Shown here: positions 7,229 through 24,551 of the stretch, one piece after another
How the letters are laid out: each line of letters starts with the position of its first letter
Position numbering within the stretch: position 1 is the first letter of the stretch
Source of the DNA: Myxococcota bacterium
GTDB taxonomy: Bacteria; Myxococcota_A; UBA796; GCA-2862545
Direction: 5' to 3'
Length of the DNA stretch: 24,551 bases
Assembly: GCA_039208735.1 (NCBI GenBank)
Contig: JBCCQY010000143.1
Span: 1 to 24,551, forward strand
Notes under the pieces: model-generated
Told to the model about the DNA's origin: nothing
Databases searched by the model: none
The model's input: the letters and a program-made list of their open reading frames with translations, nothing else
Program-made: the position numbers and the translations under genes

Positions 7229-7523
7229 GCCGAGGGAGGCAATCCCCACCCGGGCACGCCACGTTGGCCCCGCGCCATCCCCAAGGGCTCGCAGACCATG
7301 ACGTCAAACTGCCGCTCCTGGCTCAGAAAGCGACGACCCGTTCCCTCGAGCACCACTTCCGCGAGCCTGGGAAGCTGCCTGTTTGACGGTAGGGCCACTT
7401 TGTGGCCCCCTACATCTCAAGTCACATGCCTCTGCCAGGCGCTCCGCAACTCGGTCTGTCCCCTATGCTACAACACTCGGGGTGAACCCGTGTAAGCGAC
7501 GGGGGGCGGGACTTGGAGGACGC

Positions 7524-10262
7524 GTGAAACGGCATGCCTATCGTGGTGAGGCCACCCGCGACGGCCACGGACAAAGCGGGACCGCAGCCCTACCTGCCAA
7601 AGCACCTAGCCACTGGTCTTTGGCCCCCCCCTCCCTCGACCGGGAGCGAGATGCCGACCGTGGGGGAAAGCTTCCCCGGCGGGTTGCCAGCGTGGCCACT
7701 GGCGAGCCCGTCCCCACCGAGGTCGCCTCGGCGATGGCTCGAATGGGGCGCGGTCAGCCCCTGCCTGGGTCAATTGCCGGACCCGATCTGTCGAATGTCC
7801 GCGTCCATCGCTCGCCTGCCGCCCGTACCGTGGCGGCCCTGGTGGGTGCACGGTCCATAGCCTTTGGTTGCCAGGTTGTGCTCGGTCAGGAAGGAGACCT
7901 GGAGCACGAGCTGGGACATGTCCGCCAGCAACGAGCCGAGGGCGTGGCCACGATTGACCGAATCACCGTCACACCCGACAAAGCCGATATGGTCTACCGG
8001 GCCTGGGTGGCCGAGTACGAGAAACGCCTGGGGAAGGGCAACCCTCTGGCTGCCGAGAAGGCGGCCGCGCGCACGCGCGCCCAGATTGGACCGCCCATGC
8101 CCTCGCGGTGGGTGGCGCCCCACCGTCGCCCCCCTCCGCCACCGCCCAAGCCGCTCGAGCCACCGGAGCCCCAGTTCAAGGTCACGCTGGCCGACGGAAC
8201 AGAGTTGGTCCTGTCCCAAAGGCAGCTCGACGCCCGGCGCCAAAAGGCGAGAAAAGAGCTTGAACGTCGTATCGCCACGCTCGAGACCTTGGTGCGCAAC
8301 GGCCGCTCCCACCAGCGGATGCTGGCGGAGAACAAGGGCGTGGGTGGCTGGTTGGTGGACTCGGTAACGGGCGCAAGGTTGCCTCCCGAGTCGATGTGGG
8401 ATGCGCCCGGTCCTACCATCCAGCAGGCCAAGCGCCTCCTGGCTGCCGGAAACTACAAAGGGGCATTGAAGGCCATCAAGGCCGGCCACCATTCCTACGC
8501 GCAGGCGGCCGTAAATGTGACCGCCTACCTTGACGAAGTCGATGTCGGCGGCCACAAACTGATCGAATACCTGGAGACGACCAGGGACATCTCCTTTTCC
8601 GTTGCCATTGCCACCGGTGCCGTGGTGGCCGCGCCCGTAGTCGCGGTTGGCCTGGCCGAAGTAGGGGTCACGGGAGCGGTGGGGACCGTCGCCACCGGCG
8701 CAGTCGTCACTGCAGGGGGGGGCATTGCGGGAGGAGGCCTACGGGGAGGGACGGCCTTGGTAGGTCAGGTGATGACCACCGGAACCGTCGACACGAAGGA
8801 GCTGAAGGATGAGACCGTGGAGGGCGCGAAGCGAGGTGCCGTCGATGCCTTCGGTTCCGTCACCGGCTACGGCGTCACCCAGGGGCTCGGTACCGGGACC
8901 ACGCTGCTGGGACGGGTGGGCGTGGGCGCCGCGTCAGGAGCGGCAGGAGGTGGCGGCAGCGCGGTTCTCGATGCCAAGCTTCGGGGGAAGAACTGGAAGC
9001 AGGCGCTCGAGGATGGTCAGCGCGGTGCCTTCCTCGGGGCGGTGTCGGGAGGCGTGGCGGGCCCGGTCGGGGGAGCCAAAATGGCCACTGCTCCTCGAGC
9101 ACTCACAGAGGGTGTGGTGGCCGGAGGAACCACGGTTGGCATCGCACTAGCGGAAGGCAAGGACATCGACGAGCAAGTCGTCAAGGACGCCTTGGGAAGC
9201 GGGGTGTCCGCGCTGGGCTCTGGGGCCGTATCCCTCACCACCACGAGCCGACGCCCGCCCAGCTCCCCCGTGCCCGCCGAGGGCCACCCCGCGGTTCGCC
9301 CGAATCCGCGGCCAGCGAACCACAACCGCATCGGACCCGTCAGCGACCCCGCGGTCCCCAGGAACCCACGACCCGCCAACGACCGGATCGGTCCACTCCA
9401 GGACCACACGGCAGAGCTCGTGGTCGAAGCCGCGAACACGAACGTGGCAGGGTCCACCGAGGCATACGTGGTCGGTGGCGAGCCATTCAACACGCTTCAT
9501 CCACCACAGTCGCCCAACGGAGTGCGACCTCGGGCCTCGGTTGGCGATGGGTTCGCGCCGGACCCTCTCCGCAACGCCTCCCTCCCGGAGGGAACCCACC
9601 GGTCGGTGCCTCCGCCTCCTCGAGAACGGCGCAGCGAGGCTGTGCGTCCTGGGGGCCCGAAGGGCCGGCGCCGTCCGGAGACGAAGAACGACCTTGACCA
9701 TGAGTCCTCCACACTCTGGGAGCTAGACACGCCCAGTCTGGACAACCTCACGAACGAACAGTTTCGCGAGTTGTACAGGCGGTCCGAGAACATCCCGAAG
9801 GAGCAAGTCCGCCCTGCCGCAGACCTCGCCAAGGACCATCCCCATCATGGTTCAGGCGGGCGCCGGCAGCGAGGCGAGAAGGGGCAATGGCCCGCCAACG
9901 CGAGCGGTTACGTCTACCAGTTGATCGACTTCCAGGGCCGGGTCATCTACATCGGCATCACCGTCGACCCAGCAAGACGCATCCAGAATCACGCCAACCC
10001 GAACAACCGGTACAGCAAGGTGTTCTATGGGATGCAGATCTTGAGGGGCGGGCTCACCGAGGTGGACGCCCGTGCGCTCGAGGCCCGGTTCCGCGATACG
10101 ACCCCCGGCGAGCTCGTAAATCGGGACTACAGCACAGTGCACGACGGTATCGACCTCCACGACGCGGCGACGACCGCCGGTGGAGGCGATCCAAAAGCCG
10201 ACGGCTCTCCCGTTATCTACGAGAATCCAAAGCTGCACCGCTATCGCTCGTCGGAGGACTGA
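7524..10262 (+). CDS. DUF4157 (eCIS core) polymorphic toxin with a Gly/Ala-rich hydrophobic middle and C-terminal GIY-YIG nuclease domain
   Basis: GQPLP...DLSNVRVH...GARSIAFGCQVVLG...LEHELGHVRQQ carries the DUF4157 HExxH. C-terminal GYVYQLIDFQGRVIYIGITVDPARRIQNH...ALEARF...LVN is GIY-YIG. GTG 7524 follows GGAGG. Confidence 0.85.
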   Translation: MKRHAYRGEATRDGHGQSGTAALPAKAPSHWSLAPPSLDRERDADRGGKLPRRVASVATGEPVPTEVASAMARMGRGQPLPGSIAGPDLSNVRVHRSPAARTVAALVGARSIAFGCQVVLGQEGDLEHELGHVRQQRAEGVATIDRITVTPDKADMVYRAWVAEYEKRLGKGNPLAAEKAAARTRAQIGPPMPSRWVAPHRRPPPPPPKPLEPPEPQFKVTLADGTELVLSQRQLDARRQKARKELERRIATLETLVRNGRSHQRMLAENKGVGGWLVDSVTGARLPPESMWDAPGPTIQQAKRLLAAGNYKGALKAIKAGHHSYAQAAVNVTAYLDEVDVGGHKLIEYLETTRDISFSVAIATGAVVAAPVVAVGLAEVGVTGAVGTVATGAVVTAGGGIAGGGLRGGTALVGQVMTTGTVDTKELKDETVEGAKRGAVDAFGSVTGYGVTQGLGTGTTLLGRVGVGAASGAAGGGGSAVLDAKLRGKNWKQALEDGQRGAFLGAVSGGVAGPVGGAKMATAPRALTEGVVAGGTTVGIALAEGKDIDEQVVKDALGSGVSALGSGAVSLTTTSRRPPSSPVPAEGHPAVRPNPRPANHNRIGPVSDPAVPRNPRPANDRIGPLQDHTAELVVEAANTNVAGSTEAYVVGGEPFNTLHPPQSPNGVRPRASVGDGFAPDPLRNASLPEGTHRSVPPPPRERRSEAVRPGGPKGRRRPETKNDLDHESSTLWELDTPSLDNLTNEQFRELYRRSENIPKEQVRPAADLAKDHPHHGSGGRRQRGEKGQWPANASGYVYQLIDFQGRVIYIGITVDPARRIQNHANPNNRYSKVFYGMQILRGGLTEVDARALEARFRDTTPGELVNRDYSTVHDGIDLHDAATTAGGGDPKADGSPVIYENPKLHRYRSSED
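9285..9395 (+). repeat. Two intragenic ~20-aa tandem repeats in the toxin linker
   Basis: HPAVRPNPRPANHNRIGP and DPAVPRNPRPANDRIGP, with a 60-nt period (9285, 9345). Confidence 0.8.
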
Positions 10263-17905: not shown

Positions 17906-19606
17906 TCACTCGGCCAAGCCGACGGCGAGGTTCAAGAGGTGGGCCCCCGGGAAGCTCTGGTCGCCCGCGCTCCCGAGCACGTTGATGAGGTACTGATAGC
18001 GGACGTCGATGCGGAAGACCTGCGCCTCGAACCCCGCGCCCACGCCGACCATAGGCCCGAGCATGGGGACCCGAGGCGCGTCCTCGTCCCACGCCTTCCC
18101 CGCGACGGCCTGTCCCCCGCCAACGCCCGCGAGTACCGTCACGTTGAGCGGAACCAGTGGATCGAACGAGGCCTCGAGCCCGGTGCTCGCCCCACCGAGG
18201 ATGCCGACGGTGGGGCTGTAGTTGACCTGCAAAGCGAGCGGCACCTGCAAGATCTTCGTGAACTCTCCCTCCGCGGGACGGAAGTTGTACTGCCAGGCCA
18301 GCCCCAGGATCGGGTTCCAGCTCGTGCCTGGGTCCCCCACGAGCGCGCTCGCACCCCCGGATATCATGAAGCGCTGGGGACGAGCTCGGGTCTGCGCCTC
18401 GACGGACTGCCGGAACTCCTTCTTGGCGGCCTGCTTCAGCTTCTCGTCCTTGGGGAGCTTGCGGAGTCGGAGCGCGTCGGCCTTCACGGGAATCAGAGCC
18501 TGGAGCAGCAGATCCCCGTCCTGCCTCACGAGCTGGGACTCGGCCACGCGCTTCGTCACCCGGGGAGCATCTGGATCTCCCGGCTTCTTTCCCGATGCGG
18601 CCAGGGCCTTGGCGGTGGCTTCCTCGTCGATGGTGTCGTGCGAGAAGACGAAGGCATCCCCCTTCTTCTCGAGGTGGCGTGTGCGCTCGGCGACGACGCG
18701 CTTCTTCTGCTTCCCGTCGGCGCCGGTGGCCGTACCGGTGAGCGACAGGGAGAACTCGTTGCCCAGAGCGCGGCGCAGTGAGAGCGTGAGGTCCTTCAGC
18801 TTCCACTCGGGGAACGCACCCGCCGCGGGGATCGTCGATTCGCCAGCCACGACGGCCTCGAACACGTCGTCGGTGGCCACCGTCACCTCGGCTTCCTGGT
18901 CCTGGGCGCCGAGGCTCTGGATCATCCGCTGGGTCTGGGCAAGGCCGTTGGCAGCCCGGCGTGCATCCTCGGCCTCCTCCTGTGCCTTCGCGATGGCGGC
19001 CGGCGTCGCACTGGAGTCCTCGCGCAGTCGCTTGGCCGCAGACTCCTTGCGCTCCGCCGCGAAGTTCGTCGTGAACACCTTGAGCGACAGGCCGCTCCGC
19101 GATGCCACGCTGGGCACGGTGCCCATCGCGACCCGGTCGCCCACCGCGAACGGGAACACGTCCTTTACCTTGGTGGTCGGCGTCTTCGACTTCTTCTTGT
19201 GGAGCACGGTCTGTGGCCCCACCCGGCCCGTCGAGCGCTGGGCGACGTGAGCCAGCTCGTGGGGAAGCAGTCGGCTGCCGTGCGGGGCGCGCTGGGCCTG
19301 CGAGCCGAGGAAGACCTGGTGGCCTACGTTCAGAGCGTCCGCGTCATGGGCCTCCACCACACGATCCGCGACCGGTCCGCGATGGACTCGCACGTGCGAC
19401 AGATCGACACCCAGGTGTGCCGAGTAGAAGGCGTTCTCCGGAGATGACAGAGGAGCGGTCCCCGTTCGCGGTCTCGAGGACGGCACGGACGCCAAACCGC
19501 TCGCGAATCGGTCCGCCTCCCGCTCGAGCGTCTGGGGGCTCGCGCGGCTGGGGGCCGGACGGGACGCGCCTGGGGCTTCGTCTTTCGTTGCTCGGTGACC
19601 ACCCAT
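17906..19606 (-). CDS. DUF4157 (eCIS core) protein with a C-terminal predicted 8-stranded outer-membrane beta-barrel
   Basis: LEREADR...PLS...HLGVDLSHVRVH...ADALNVGHQVFLG...LLPHELAHVAQ. The last ~155 aa contain eight amphipathic strand-like segments. Confidence 0.8.
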   Translation of the reverse strand: MGGHRATKDEAPGASRPAPSRASPQTLEREADRFASGLASVPSSRPRTGTAPLSSPENAFYSAHLGVDLSHVRVHRGPVADRVVEAHDADALNVGHQVFLGSQAQRAPHGSRLLPHELAHVAQRSTGRVGPQTVLHKKKSKTPTTKVKDVFPFAVGDRVAMGTVPSVASRSGLSLKVFTTNFAAERKESAAKRLREDSSATPAAIAKAQEEAEDARRAANGLAQTQRMIQSLGAQDQEAEVTVATDDVFEAVVAGESTIPAAGAFPEWKLKDLTLSLRRALGNEFSLSLTGTATGADGKQKKRVVAERTRHLEKKGDAFVFSHDTIDEEATAKALAASGKKPGDPDAPRVTKRVAESQLVRQDGDLLLQALIPVKADALRLRKLPKDEKLKQAAKKEFRQSVEAQTRARPQRFMISGGASALVGDPGTSWNPILGLAWQYNFRPAEGEFTKILQVPLALQVNYSPTVGILGGASTGLEASFDPLVPLNVTVLAGVGGGQAVAGKAWDEDAPRVPMLGPMVGVGAGFEAQVFRIDVRYQYLINVLGSAGDQSFPGAHLLNLAVGLAE

Positions 19607-20290: not shown

Positions 20291-20950
20291 GCCGACCTCC
20301 TCGCACGTCGCATGTGCACAGCGTTCTAGGCAGCAGGAATGGACGTGGTGTGTACGCCGCTTGAGGAAACGATGGGAACGGTGCAGCGGGGGAGGGGATA
20401 GCCGACGCACATGGTGGGCGCGCACCGGTCGCGGCGTCACCTGGACCGTCGGCACCGTTCGTGCGGTCATCGGACGAAGATACAGCGGATCGCCTGATGA
20501 TCCGAGCGTGCGAGGCGGCGGTAGATCCGAGGGGGTCCATCTGCAGCCCGAGGTGGAACTCGCGGAGATTCGACCCCACGGAGTCCGACACGGGGGAGTG
20601 GCCGCAGAGCGCGGTGCAGGGAGCAGCGCAGCGCATCGTGCACCGCCACGCCCTGTCGTACGAGACACGGGACAACCGGCCCCAGGACCGGGTGGCGGTG
20701 AGGGCCGTGCGGCTGATCCCGGGGGCTGGTGACGCTCAGTTGTATGGTCCCGCGTTCATCTCCCAGGTCCGTCCCGGTTTGATCTCCCGGTGGCGAGGTT
20801 GGGATGCGCCGAGAAGCGGGAGTTCCTCCAGCTCCTCGTCCACAAGGCCACCGTCCACAGAGGCCGCGTGGACGCGAGCTATACGATGGCCGCCACACCC
20901 GCCGCTACCTCGCCCAGGTCACCCGCAACCTGTAGATTCTCTGTTGGTCG

Positions 20951-21952
20951 TCAAGTCCCGCTGCTGTTTCTTTTTGGTTGATAGAAACGTGAGGGATCAA
21001 AATGGGTTTCAGTACGCAACATCCCGTGGATGGTGTGCAGCAGCTTGCGTGCCACGGCGACGTAGGCCACAAGCTGTGCCTTGTTGCGGTCCTTTGTCAG
21101 GACACGATGAAACTCTTGGATTTCCGGAACCCATCGAACGGTGTTCAGCGCGGCCATGTGGAGTGTCGCGCGTAGGTATCTCGAACCCATTTTGCTGATG
21201 TGCCGCGGGCGGTCGCGGTCGCCTGACTGGTTGGACCGCGGATCGAGGCCCGCCTGTGCCACGAGCTGCCGCGCGGTGAGGTCAGCGGGCATACAGCCGA
21301 GTTCGGCAAGGATCTCCACAGCGGTGACCTCGGCGATGCCCTTGATGGAGCAGAGGAGGTCCATGCGATCACTGACCTGATGGTCTTGCCGTGCGTACTC
21401 GACCAATCGATAGCGTAAGCCAGCGATTCGCTCATCGAGGCTCGCAATGCTGTTCTCGATGTCGGCCAGGAGTTCAGCAGGAAGAACACCGGTGGCCTCG
21501 GTCGACTGAAGCCGATTCTTCTCACGTGTTCGGTCGTTGACGAGCGTGCGGATTCGTCTCGCCCAGCTCCGCATGTTGAGCGCGTGCTCCGAGGGTGGCT
21601 GCCACGGATCGCCGACCCTATCGTGAGCCATCCGGGCCAGAGCGTGGGCGTCGACGCGGTCCGTCTTCGAGCGCACCAGGCCACGGCTTGCGTAGCCTTT
21701 GGCCGCCCCCGGGTTGATGTACCGAACATCGATTCGACGTACCTTGTGCAGTCCAATGGCGAGCGCGAGTCCATAGGGCCCTGTCGATTCCAGCGCGACC
21801 GAGATTGGCCCACGGTTGCGACGGATCGCCTTGATGAGCGCACGTCTTCCGTGAAGGGAATTCTCGAATACCTGGACCGTAGCGTGCCCGTGTCGCGCCA
21901 CGTGGAATTGCTTGCTGCTGACATCGATGCCGATGGCGGCCGGTTTGGCCAT
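20951..21952 (-). CDS. IS110-family DEDD recombinase/transposase, intact (333 aa)
   Basis: IGIDVS, LESTG, KTDRVDA (DEDD); SIKGIAEVTA, AGLDP, NQSG (catalytic Ser loop), ISKMG, AVARKL. AAGGAG RBS before ATG 21952. Confidence 0.96.
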   Translation of the reverse strand: MAKPAAIGIDVSSKQFHVARHGHATVQVFENSLHGRRALIKAIRRNRGPISVALESTGPYGLALAIGLHKVRRIDVRYINPGAAKGYASRGLVRSKTDRVDAHALARMAHDRVGDPWQPPSEHALNMRSWARRIRTLVNDRTREKNRLQSTEATGVLPAELLADIENSIASLDERIAGLRYRLVEYARQDHQVSDRMDLLCSIKGIAEVTAVEILAELGCMPADLTARQLVAQAGLDPRSNQSGDRDRPRHISKMGSRYLRATLHMAALNTVRWVPEIQEFHRVLTKDRNKAQLVAYVAVARKLLHTIHGMLRTETHFDPSRFYQPKRNSSGT

Positions 21953-22006
21953 AAAGGCTCCTTCGAGGTATGGGCCGTGTGGGTCCCGACCCTGGACCAA
22001 CCGCCC

Positions 22007-22340
22007 AGGCCAACCTTACGAACGCGTGGTCATGCCACCAGATTCTCTTCGGCCTACAAGGGGCGCTGAGGGCGGGGCTCACTCTACGAAAGACAGCCTC
22101 TTGGGCTCGGTGACGGCGAGCTACACCCATCCGGCTCCCGCATTTTATCGTGGGGTAAGGCTCCCGACGGCGCCGCTAATCTACAGGCCAGGCGGACAGA
22201 CCGCCTCGGCTCGGCTCAGGCTCCCGCCGGGAGCAAACAGCCCATCATGGTCAGTAGGCTGAGACGGGGTATGGTTCGCTCGGCTAGACATCGGCCCCCT
22301 CGTCGAGGGGTCCGTTGCCAAGCCTCCCTCACCATACCCA
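22007..22340 (-). ncRNA. Predicted IS110 bridge RNA: 5' stem-loops, two target-binding loops and one donor-binding loop
   Basis: DBL 22055-22007 (guide AGAGAATCT equals the element right end; CGTAAG). TBL-B 22128-22070 (ACCGAGCC / TCGTAG). TBL-A 22234-22160 (GCCGAGCC / CCTGTAG). Each loop has a closing stem and an internal hairpin. Confidence 0.78.
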
Positions 22341-22415
22341 GAACGTATAAGGCTCGGGCTAGACCCGGGTGAAGCCTGGATTGAATGGGTATAGGCGGTC
22401 TGCAACGAGGTGGTC

Positions 22416-22742
22416 ATGAAAGGCCGACGGTTGCGGAATCGAACGGAAGCTCGGCGTTTGCTGAAGGAATGGGAAGCATCGGGGCAGCCGATGCGAAAGT
22501 GGTGCGAATCCCGCGGTCTGTCGTGGGGTTCGATGGCGCAGCATCGACGGTTTTGGCTCGCAGACCAAGCGAAGGCCAAGGCCGAGAAGGTCGACTTCGT
22601 CGAGGTCCTGCCGACGTCGGTGCCGTCGGCCCAGCGTGCGGTTCGCTATCGGATGTTTGTGGGGGCTGGGGTGCTCGAAGTCGGGGACAACTTAGACGAG
22701 GACACGTTGCGCCGTTTGTTGCGGGTGATGAACACGTGCTGA
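22416..22742 (+). CDS. tnpA: IS66 accessory protein TnpA
   Basis: EWEASGQPMRKWCESRGLS...FVEV...TLRRLLRVM; overlaps the tnpB start. Confidence 0.85.
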   Translation: MKGRRLRNRTEARRLLKEWEASGQPMRKWCESRGLSWGSMAQHRRFWLADQAKAKAEKVDFVEVLPTSVPSAQRAVRYRMFVGAGVLEVGDNLDEDTLRRLLRVMNTC

Positions 22743-22982
22743 GCTTCCCGCCCTCTGTACGAATTTGGTTGTGGCCGGTGCCCGTGGACATGCGAAAGTC
22801 GTTTCGGGGCTTGTCCGGGGTGGTGCGGGAGCGGGCGTTTCCATCTTCCCGCCCATGAAGCGGAACAGAAGGTGTCGCTAACCGCAGGCCAGTTGCTCCT
22901 GATGCTCGAAGGATTGGACGTGGCCACGCTGGTGCGCCGCGTGCGCCACCATCGCGAGCCGACCTCGAACGACGAAAACTGA
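22736..22982 (+). pseudogene. tnpB: IS66 TnpB with an internal deletion and frameshift
   Basis: MLSFPPSVRIWLWPVPVDMRKSFRGLSGVVRE joins at ~22830, out of frame, to GRFHLP...QLLLMLEGLD. The central 'HLFVF..RRD.VK.L.WD..G...KRLE' block is missing. Confidence 0.85.
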
Positions 22983-23046
22983 GGAGGTTCGATCCTTGTC
23001 GATCCCAGGGGTTGTCGGGCGTGGACCCGTGAGCTGAAGTGACGGG

Positions 23047-24551
23047 GTGACCGACCGCCAACGCATCGCCGAACTGCAGGCCCAGAACGCCGCGCTGCAA
23101 CAGTTGCTCGAGCAACAAGTTGCACAGAACGGCACGTTGACGGCCCAGGTCCAGCAGCTGTTGGTGCTGGTCGAAGGATTGCAGAAGCAGCTGGCCGCGT
23201 GGCTTCCCAAGCCCGCAGCCCCCGAACCGGTCGCCGCCCCTGCTCCACCCGTTGCGAATCCGGCGGATGTGCCCTCCCTGTTGGCGCCTCCCGAACCGCC
23301 GTTGCGCGCACCGTCGAAGCGACGGAAACCCAAACGGGTGCCGCTCGACGCCGCGTTGCCGCGAGACATCGAGACCTACTCGGTCGAGGCCTGTCCTTCG
23401 TGTGGCAGCGAGGACTTGGCGGCGCTGGACACGGAAGTCAGCGAACGGCTGGCCTACATCCGCGCCCACGTTCGTGTTCGCCGCATCGAGCGTCCCAAGG
23501 TGCGCTGTCGCAGCTGCCAGACGTTGTCGACGGCCCCGATGCCGCCCGTCGCAGTGCCCCAAGGGCAGCTCGACCCCACGATGTTGGCCCATCTGGCCTA
23601 CAGCAAATGTGGCCTGCACCTGCCGTTGAAACGCATTGCGGAAGATCTGGCGAACCAAGGCGTGACGCTGCCTTCCTCGACGATGTCAGATGCCATGGGG
23701 CACACCGCCGACTTGCTCGAACCGGTCTACGACGCCCTGCTGGCCCGTCTGTTTGCGTCCCCGCTGCTGCATGCCGATGGGACTGGATTGACCGTGCTTC
23801 GACCCGGTCAGAAAGGACCGTACCGCGGCCAGTTCCTGGCCGTCTGCAACGACGACGTCACGGCCTACGTCTTCACGCCATCCAAGCATGGCGAACACCT
23901 GACCGCCTTTTTTGGCGTCGGGTCGCCCGACGGCTACGAAGGCTTCCTCGTCGCCGATGCCGCCTCCAACATGAACCGGCTGTACGACGAGGGCCGGATC
24001 CTTGAATGTGGGTGCTGGTTTCACGCCCGCGACAAGTTTGTGGAAGCCCGACCCAACGCCCCGTTCGCCGCCGAAGAGGGCATTGCCTGGATTGGCGCCT
24101 TGTTCGAAGTCGAACGGTCGGCCGACGAGGCGGACGAAACCGCCGAAGAGCGTCGCGCCCGACGGCGACGCGAATCGGTGCCCATCCTTCACGAATTTGA
24201 ACGCTGGATGGACAGCGTGGTGCCGCGGTTTGCACCCGACGAAGCGATCGCCAAGGCCATTCGCTACGTGCGCACCCATCGCGAGGCGTTGTGGCGCTTC
24301 GTCGAACACGGCACCGTGCCCTTGACCAACAACCTGGCGGAACGCGAGCTGGGCGTCATCGGCCGGGGTCGCAAGGCCTTTCTGTTCGCTGGCAGCGACG
24401 CCGGCGCCCCTCGATTGGCCGTGCTTCACACCGTCGTTCGGACCTGCCAGCGCCTGCGTGCCGATCCGTTTGCTTACTTGTGCGACGTCCTGCCCCGCTT
24501 GAGCGTGATGCCCGCGAACCGTGGCCTTCGCCTGGCTGACCTGACCCCGCA
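23047..24551 (+). CDS. tnpC: IS66 DDE transposase TnpC, truncated by the window end
   Basis: Not in the ORF track; read by hand. Coiled coil, CPSC...CRSC Zn finger, LHADGT, LVADAAS, CWFHARDKF, LTNNLAERELG, GRKAFLFAGS, DPFAYLCDVL. Confidence 0.95.
   Translation, partial: MTDRQRIAELQAQNAALQQLLEQQVAQNGTLTAQVQQLLVLVEGLQKQLAAWLPKPAAPEPVAAPAPPVANPADVPSLLAPPEPPLRAPSKRRKPKRVPLDAALPRDIETYSVEACPSCGSEDLAALDTEVSERLAYIRAHVRVRRIERPKVRCRSCQTLSTAPMPPVAVPQGQLDPTMLAHLAYSKCGLHLPLKRIAEDLANQGVTLPSSTMSDAMGHTADLLEPVYDALLARLFASPLLHADGTGLTVLRPGQKGPYRGQFLAVCNDDVTAYVFTPSKHGEHLTAFFGVGSPDGYEGFLVADAASNMNRLYDEGRILECGCWFHARDKFVEARPNAPFAAEEGIAWIGALFEVERSADEADETAEERRARRRRESVPILHEFERWMDSVVPRFAPDEAIAKAIRYVRTHREALWRFVEHGTVPLTNNLAERELGVIGRGRKAFLFAGSDAGAPRLAVLHTVVRTCQRLRADPFAYLCDVLPRLSVMPANRGLRLADLTP

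Follow-up and report, generated by a model that had tools for sequence, protein, structure and literature searches.

A putative IS110-group bridge RNA with two target-type loops and one donor loop

The closest described counterparts of the element reported here are IS621 and ISCro4 (IS622). In the accessible text of their descriptions, both possess a recombinase of the DEDD plus Tnp-serine type, an RNA in the long left end and a CT core (PMC11208160, PMC11208158), and their RNAs of 177–179 nt comprise one target loop and one donor loop, with 7-nt left guides, 4–5-nt right guides and a discontinuous right donor guide (PMC11208160, PMC11208158, PMC13626964, 10.1101/2025.05.14.653916). The present element has the same recombinase type, RNA position, core and guide format, and also shares the handshakes, AU in its outer target loop (loop A) and GU in its donor loop, as well as the promoter-like circle junction. 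However, its RNA of about 330 nt is predicted to contain two target-type loops next to the donor loop, and thus departs from the bridge-RNA plan of one of each; it is the outer loop that matches the site here, whereas IS621 and ISCro4 have a single target loop.

Three further systems show partial likeness to this locus, judged from the accessible portions of the respective reports. A target loop able to act as a unit beside the full bridge RNA is also found in CazIS110-1, but the extra RNA there is a truncation with the same guide, whereas the second loop here is encoded and differently programmed (10.1101/2025.10.25.684509). ISPpu9 with Ssr9 is likewise an IS110 element accompanied by an additional RNA module, one that is similar to a portion of the element's non-coding end; however, Ssr9 lies downstream as a separately mobile, MITE-like unit with ends of its own, and is not described in that text as a second target loop (PMC12288879). 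TIGR-Tas resembles the locus in its tandem two-part guides and its presumably IS110-related protein domain, but TIGR arrays are multi-unit and without donor loop or transposition, whereas two units and an intact recombinase are present here (PMC12045711).

A description of a two-target-loop bridge RNA was not found in the searchable running text of the IS110 papers covered. Such a layout is absent from the accessible portions of PMC11208160, PMC11208158, PMC13626964, 10.64898/2026.10.21.760802, 10.1101/2025.05.14.653916, 10.1101/2025.10.25.684509, PMC12288879, PMC13604230, 10.64898/2026.08.31.748434, 10.1101/2024.06.21.599552 and 10.64898/2026.08.14.744561; the term "two TBL" in the accessible text of PMC13626964 denotes two protein dimers. 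The layout could be included among the 86 models of the Evo-PIN preprint.

The element, its ends and its target

The window, that is, the whole stretch of 24,551 nucleotides that was analysed, is contig C143 of genome G000. Its minus strand encodes an IS110 recombinase (Table 1) in which D10, E55, D98, D101 and S243 are invariant across 26 close homologs (alignment A1), and structure–sequence matches were obtained to ISCro4 (9t56, E 1.8e-25) and IS621 (8wt6, E 1.4e-23). With a DEDD RuvC-like domain, a Tnp20 domain with the catalytic serine, a long left end (399 bp) and a short right end (<20 bp), the element belongs to the IS110 group. Assignment to the IS1111 group was rejected, as the RNA lies in the left end and the right end is short, whereas IS1111 elements have the RNA in a long right end and long sub-terminal inverted repeats. 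A TIGR array was rejected as well: there are only two units, a donor loop is present and the recombinase is a full IS110 one.

Table 1. Features of the IS110-group element and its surroundings (window coordinates)
Feature	Position	Strand	Details
IS110-group element	20934..22351	(-)	CT cores 22351-22350 and 20935-20934; bounded by empty targets and relatives' end motifs
IS110 recombinase	20951..21952	(-)	333 aa, open frame; Pfam PF01548 and PF02371
Left end	22342..22351	(-)	CT core, right donor TATACGT, -10-like TACGTT
Long 5' hairpin	22266..22340	(-)	z -6.3; 0/200 shuffles as stable
Small hairpin before module A	22240..22262	(-)	predicted fold, this element
Target loop A (outer)	22160..22234	(-)	left guide GCCGAGC 22215-22209; hairpin 22206-22190; right guide CCTGT 22187-22183; core AG 22182-22181; handshake AU 22180-22179; closing stem of 11 bp, 22234-22224 / 22170-22160
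Target loop B (inner)	22072..22128	(-)	left guide CCGTCAC 22116-22110 (alternatively GCCGTCA, shifted upstream by one base); hairpin AGCC/GGCT 22107-22095; right guide TTCGT 22090-22086; core AG 22085-22084; handshake AG
Donor loop	22007..22055	(-)	left guide AGAGAAT-CT 22048-22040; hairpin GTGG/CCAC 22038-22026; handshake GU
Right end	20934..20954	(-)	TTGACG 20954-20949 (-35-like, overlaps stop codon) and left donor AGAGAAT-CT
Target left half CCCGAGC	22352..22358	(-)	inside IS66-like end
Target right half ACAGG	20929..20933	(-)	homology to C266/C52/C21 ends at 20929
IS66-like element (target)	22352..24551	(+)	tnpA-like 22410-22742; tnpB-like, broken, 22736-22982; tnpC 23047 to contig end

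In silico excision of 22351–20936 yields the plus-strand sequence CTGT-AG-GCTCGG. This uninterrupted site is present in the same genome, on C36 (left end of an IS66-like element) and C206 (right end), and also on one contig of run X4 from a separate study; at all three places CTGT precedes AGGCTCGG. The empty sites rebuild with a single CT, indicating scarless insertion at a shared dinucleotide core. Since they join exactly at 22351, the element ends at this position, having the tip of the adjoining IS66-like element as its target, with the insertion point 4 bp inside the tip and 20930–20933 as the severed piece. The left end assigned by the sequence-only reading was thus confirmed. That reading had named an alternative CT at 22159–22158 as the end which other copies might reveal, in which case two separate things would have been joined, with loop A in flanking DNA or in another element. 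CT-TACC at this place indeed gives a pairing with the right donor guide that roughly equals that of the true end, but the empty sites on C36, C206 and X4 rule out an end there, and the relatives share the starting CT-TGTACGTT, which lies upstream of both loops; we regard the chance of such a composite as negligible. The CT-TGTACGTT start is also common to copies at different sites in genome G024.

The motif TTGAC-N4-AACAGAG-N-ATCT was found repeatedly at the relatives' ends. The computed circle junction of the joined ends reads TTGACG-N17-TACGTT, and by analogy with IS621, as described in the accessible text of PMC13626964, it may act as a promoter. Inspection of the linear left end revealed no promoter-like site.

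In the IS66-like element, tnpC matches Pfam DDE_Tnp_IS66 (E 2.6e-68); the tnpA-like and tnpB-like labels are our assumption from gene order, and a Pfam search of the tnpA-like frame gave no match. Insertion into the terminal repeat probably immobilises this IS66-like copy, the tnpB-like frame of which is also broken. Positions 20806–24551 are nested: a gene fragment with 90% likeness to copies on C266, C52 and C21 is interrupted at 20929 by the IS66-like element, and the IS110 element then inserted into the tip of the latter as the last layer. The fragment is presumably the terminal part of an integrase gene that adjoins a tRNA. The reverse case was observed in genome G024 (L009, 1100–1191), where an IS66 end replaces the first ~75 bp of a two-loop IS110 copy.

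Predicted layout of the left end

From its 5' side, the left end comprises the long hairpin, loop A, loop B and the donor loop. Two target-loop modules with one donor loop had been proposed from the letters alone, an arrangement that held and is common to a group of relatives. The donor loop corresponds in every part to what had been proposed: its closing stem pairs AGGCCGA (22055–22049) with TTGGCCT (22013–22007) around the GTGG/CCAC hairpin, and the left guide AGAGAATCT (22048–22040) is identical to the right end (20942–20934) at 9 of 9 positions. Its right guide, GCGTTCGTA-AG (22025–22015), is discontinuous, which fits the nine-against-seven pattern in the accessible text of Durrant 2024 (PMC11208160). 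Furthermore, this guide varies together with the right donor, CT-TA facing TA-AG here and CT-TG facing CA-AG in the elements of C145 and G024.

Loop A agrees with the earlier proposal in its stem, guides (GCCGAGC and CCTGT-AG) and coordinates. It folds with z -2.4 and matches the site CCCGAGC-CT-ACAGG at 6 of 7 left and 5 of 5 right positions. Module A is predicted to form a self-contained long hairpin, followed by an unpaired linker. The long 5' hairpin also occurs in the C145 and G024 elements, as revealed by folds and alignment. Two checks suggested with the earlier reading gave no support: folding of the entire region is no more stable than that of shuffled sequences (z -1.41), and a covariance model built from single-loop relatives (R1) scored the window's two loops weakly, at E 0.72 and 5.7, neither being significant. 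An Rfam scan returned a single chance match (E 3.2). The supposed repeat of a stem-loop plus target-loop unit was not upheld either, the hairpin before loop B being weak here and absent in G024.

The register of loop B required correction. Its previously assigned hairpin, AAGA/TCTT, has a mean pairing probability of at most 0.036 in 20 of 20 fragment folds. The hairpin AGCC/GGCT reaches 0.47–0.91 in 17 of the 20 (0.27, 0.03 and 0.00 in the other three), is kept in two relatives with other targets, and is the pairing aligned by a covariance model. The conserved GAGCC is thus a hairpin arm, and loop B consequently spells CCGTCAC-CT-ACGA, not the occupied site, to which it fits at only 3 of 7 left and 2 of 5 right positions. 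The 6/7 match formerly credited to both left guides is, for loop B, a coincidence, because the same CGAGCC is present in the C145 and G024 elements, whose targets differ. A role of loop B as a conserved homing guide to IS66 ends was rejected, as the single-loop relatives reveal GAGCC to be the hairpin arm; a role in guiding excision at the junctions of the element itself was rejected too, as on inspection its guides mismatch the donor halves.

Two-loop elements among the relatives

Relatives were collected as 80 loci from an alignment scan of genome contigs, plus genome searches; the closer homologs P0002–P0027, not traced to DNA, stand outside the DNA-level loop counts. Single-loop relatives (30–40% protein identity; among them L017, L104, L154, L175 and L223) share the end motifs and the loop template, and their loop has the donor spacing of loop B. 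The template derived from them consists of a 7-nt left guide, C plus 1–2 bases and a 4-bp hairpin, then G plus 5–6 bases ending in the right guide, AG and the closing stem; across 29 units its hairpin shows 99% pairing, and each of the 4 pairs has two-sided changes. The loop descriptor was blind to flanks and was run as a strict first pass followed by a relaxed one, with a score cut-off of 10 (loop A of L005 was set by hand). It found two loops in 13 of 21 loci with long or unbounded left ends, representing 11 distinct elements; among the remaining eight, L078 has a weak second loop, four have one loop and three have none. In contrast, the short-ended loci, which measure <170 nt from left end to donor guide and include the training set, gave one loop in 52 of 54 cases, none in 2 and two in 0. 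Resampled left ends of three elements produced two descriptor matches of at least 10 in 0, 2 and 0 of 150 cases, the window's count being 0/150, and covariance model R1 detected both loops in L254, L258, L234, L011 and L008 at 15–41 bits.

In 11 of 11 elements the inner loop lies 34–41 nt ahead of the donor guide, which is the position of the relatives' single loop; the outer loop is thus the addition. Loop B might be a dead relic, namely the ancestral loop, superseded by a loop A that arose by duplication or capture. The window's loop B is off template, with 9 nt instead of 6–7 between hairpin and core (two extra bases); furthermore, the core is mutated in L234, the hairpin is imperfect in L033 and L011, and the descriptor did not detect a loop B in L004, L006 and L054. 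However, across the 11 elements the hairpin, closing stem and donor-loop distance are kept, with G after the hairpin in 11/11, an AG core in 10/11 and compensatory hairpin pairs, between recombinases that are 30–69% identical to the window's. This conservation argues against simple decay, and we consider a dead relic distinctly unlikely.

The two-loop hosts are kin of G000, being Myxococcota or Deltaproteobacteria where named. In quick trees the two-loop rows cluster with no firm base, and these trees neither establish nor contradict a single origin (p-AU 0.56). A right-end pattern scan of metagenomes found IS110 at 36 of 79 loci among the matches listed, and the two-loop layout is absent from the parsed metagenome IS110 loci among those matches. 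Single-protein scans of genome and metagenome contigs gave no relatives, and none of 7 viral right-end-pattern matches has IS110.

Several loci deserve separate mention. L232, L004, L006, L054 and L003 have long left ends with one or no loop passing the descriptor; by eye, the outer loop of L004, L006 and L054 matches the flanks and the inner loop is degenerate. Genome G000 carries a second two-loop element (L008, C145 6870–8285), with a protein 69% identical to the window's, an in-frame TAG and an identical donor sequence; the recombinase encoded in the window could mobilise it in trans. An orphan right end with no transposase gene (L268, G023 C17 near 20564), whose flank CAGTG fits loop A of L054 by eye, is possibly a truncated or non-autonomous copy. 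The right-end motif at L308 and L316 (G069) and at L309 (G131), with no IS110 gene within 1.5 kb, possibly marks non-autonomous derivatives or arises by chance.

Loop use at insertion sites and a proposed mechanism

In the eight elements with both flanks available, loop A matches the insertion site at 10, 10, 10, 9, 10, 8, 9 and 10 of 11 positions. Of 40,320 flank permutations, 4 attain this total of 76/88 (p ~1e-4, overstated like all p values here since the elements are kin), and the total is level with the single-loop benchmark (mean 9.06/11, n=33), itself partly circular because the 29 template units were located with the help of flanks. Loop B matches the same sites at 5, 5, 8, 5, 8, 6, 8 and 10 positions, a total of 55 against a permutation mean of 45.9 (p 0.006, likewise overstated); part of this excess stems from the likeness of B to A in about half the elements, which leaves some sites unassignable. 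Adding contig ends and excluding elements with fewer than two descriptor loops gave 33 junction halves, of which 28 fit A better, 3 are ties and 2 fit B better. Split by side, A gives the better fit at 13 of the 16 left halves and at 15 of the 17 right ones, and B at one each: the right half ACATT of L258 (5/5 vs 4/5) and the left half CTATGCC of L302 (5/7 vs 4/7), in both cases with the other flank missing.

Single elements agree with the totals. The site of the C145 paralog, GGGCGGC-CT-ATCT, matches loop A at 10/11 positions and loop B at 5; in the G033 element 5/5 left and 5/5 right junctions favour A, as do all 5 junction halves in G024. In G092, the loop A right guide of a sister element that is 95% alike has CCCGG in place of CCTGT, and the right ends there read CCGGG, CCGGG and CTGGG plus one ACAGG, i.e., two matching flank classes, guide and flank being paired by deduction, as right and left ends lie on different contigs. 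The AU handshake is present in loop A of 9/11 elements and in loop B of 0/11; as AG is used by 14 of 38 single-loop relatives, AG alone does not weaken a loop, and the handshake is no switch. The earlier claim that the extra, outer loop specifies this insertion stood up to the comparison of both loops with the site, and we consider it very probable that the predicted three-loop layout is real and that the extra loop is the one used for site choice.

The further claim of a multiplexed RNA, with both loops choosing sites, fared worse. Both loops might guide at similar rates, and the bias toward A might arise since B targets are rare, lethal or unassembled. Loop B is intact, its score against the single-loop profile exceeds that of A in the window, L252, L007 and L258, two junction halves favour it, and split target and donor loops work and are interchangeable in IS621 and IS622, according to the accessible text of the reports (PMC11208158; 10.1101/2025.05.14.653916). 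However, the large majority of halves favour A, and both B cases differ by one base. Exact loop B sites number 0, 0 and 1 in the three host genomes tested and are not clearly enriched in G000, where 1 of 8 tests ranked 4 of 300 shuffles; this enrichment test is uninformative, as loop A's own site is not enriched there either. Flanks of the predicted second class, CT-ACGA, did not turn up with the single copy of the exact element that was available. Neither a circle joint nor a second insertion site was found on the contigs of four runs, and contigs are compatible with the existence of either. Guiding by both loops at similar rates is in our judgement unlikely.

Our preferred reading, held with about even confidence, is an IS110-group bridge system that has gained a second target loop and uses the two in a hierarchy. 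Excision would bring the ends together into the promoter-like site; the donor loop spells these joined ends, and loop A spells the occupied target, which in this case is an IS66-like terminal repeat. In the proposed model, a recombinase dimer bound to loop A would pair with another bound to the donor loop, in the manner of IS621. Loop A would serve as the working guide, and loop B as a foldable, probably protein-binding loop that is rarely used. The AU handshake may favour A by pairing with both donor bases after strand exchange, B having AG; in IS621, as described in the accessible text, AU pairs with donor bases 6–7 after strand exchange and drives insertion (PMC11208158; PMC13626964), and the donor bases here are AT, the same as in IS621. 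Loop A may also be favoured by lying ~100 nt from the donor loop, so that one RNA could serve both in one complex, whereas the 14-nt linker of IS621 apparently forbids such use in cis, an argument from length only; the IS621 loops are ~80 A apart and come from two RNAs in the accessible account (PMC11208158). Loop B would then be a spacer and, at the same time, a reserve guide whose sequence is at liberty to change.

Alternatively, processing might split the RNA, releasing loop A as a target-only RNA and leaving loop B with the donor loop for a donor function or for excision tuning, as a decoy for dimers. The self-contained hairpin of module A with the unpaired linker behind it would suit such a release. 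In the accessible text, a 77-nt target-loop-only RNA accounts for 90% of CazIS110-1 transcripts (10.1101/2025.10.25.684509), and TBL–TBL pairs are non-productive and lower excision (PMC13626964). However, the guides of loop B fit on inspection neither the element ends nor the junctions, and we regard a processing split as quite improbable. The element might carry a natural multi-guide bridge RNA with both loops programmable, the outer dominating in cis and the inner held in reserve so that a new target could evolve while the old one is retained, as a two-unit forerunner of guide arrays; this is possible, yet we hold it tentatively and consider it doubtful.

A lineage with two target loops would indicate that the bridge scaffold is extendable in nature, and would supply natural starting constructs for testing if a single RNA can feed both synaptic halves or address two sites. 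It also bears on target change, which otherwise needs matching changes in two guide segments of the sole loop. Should loop B prove inert, the layout would be a structural curiosity.

The flanks of L002, L005, L007, L011, L033 and L234 belong to short direct-repeat families of the form CTC(C/T)GTG-N(N)-CT-C(C/T)GTG, and L006 lies in CTCCAGG repeats. Elsewhere in the window, the frames 7383–10262 (959 aa) and 17906–19606 (566 aa) have similar N-termini, which presumably resemble core domains of extracellular contractile injection systems.
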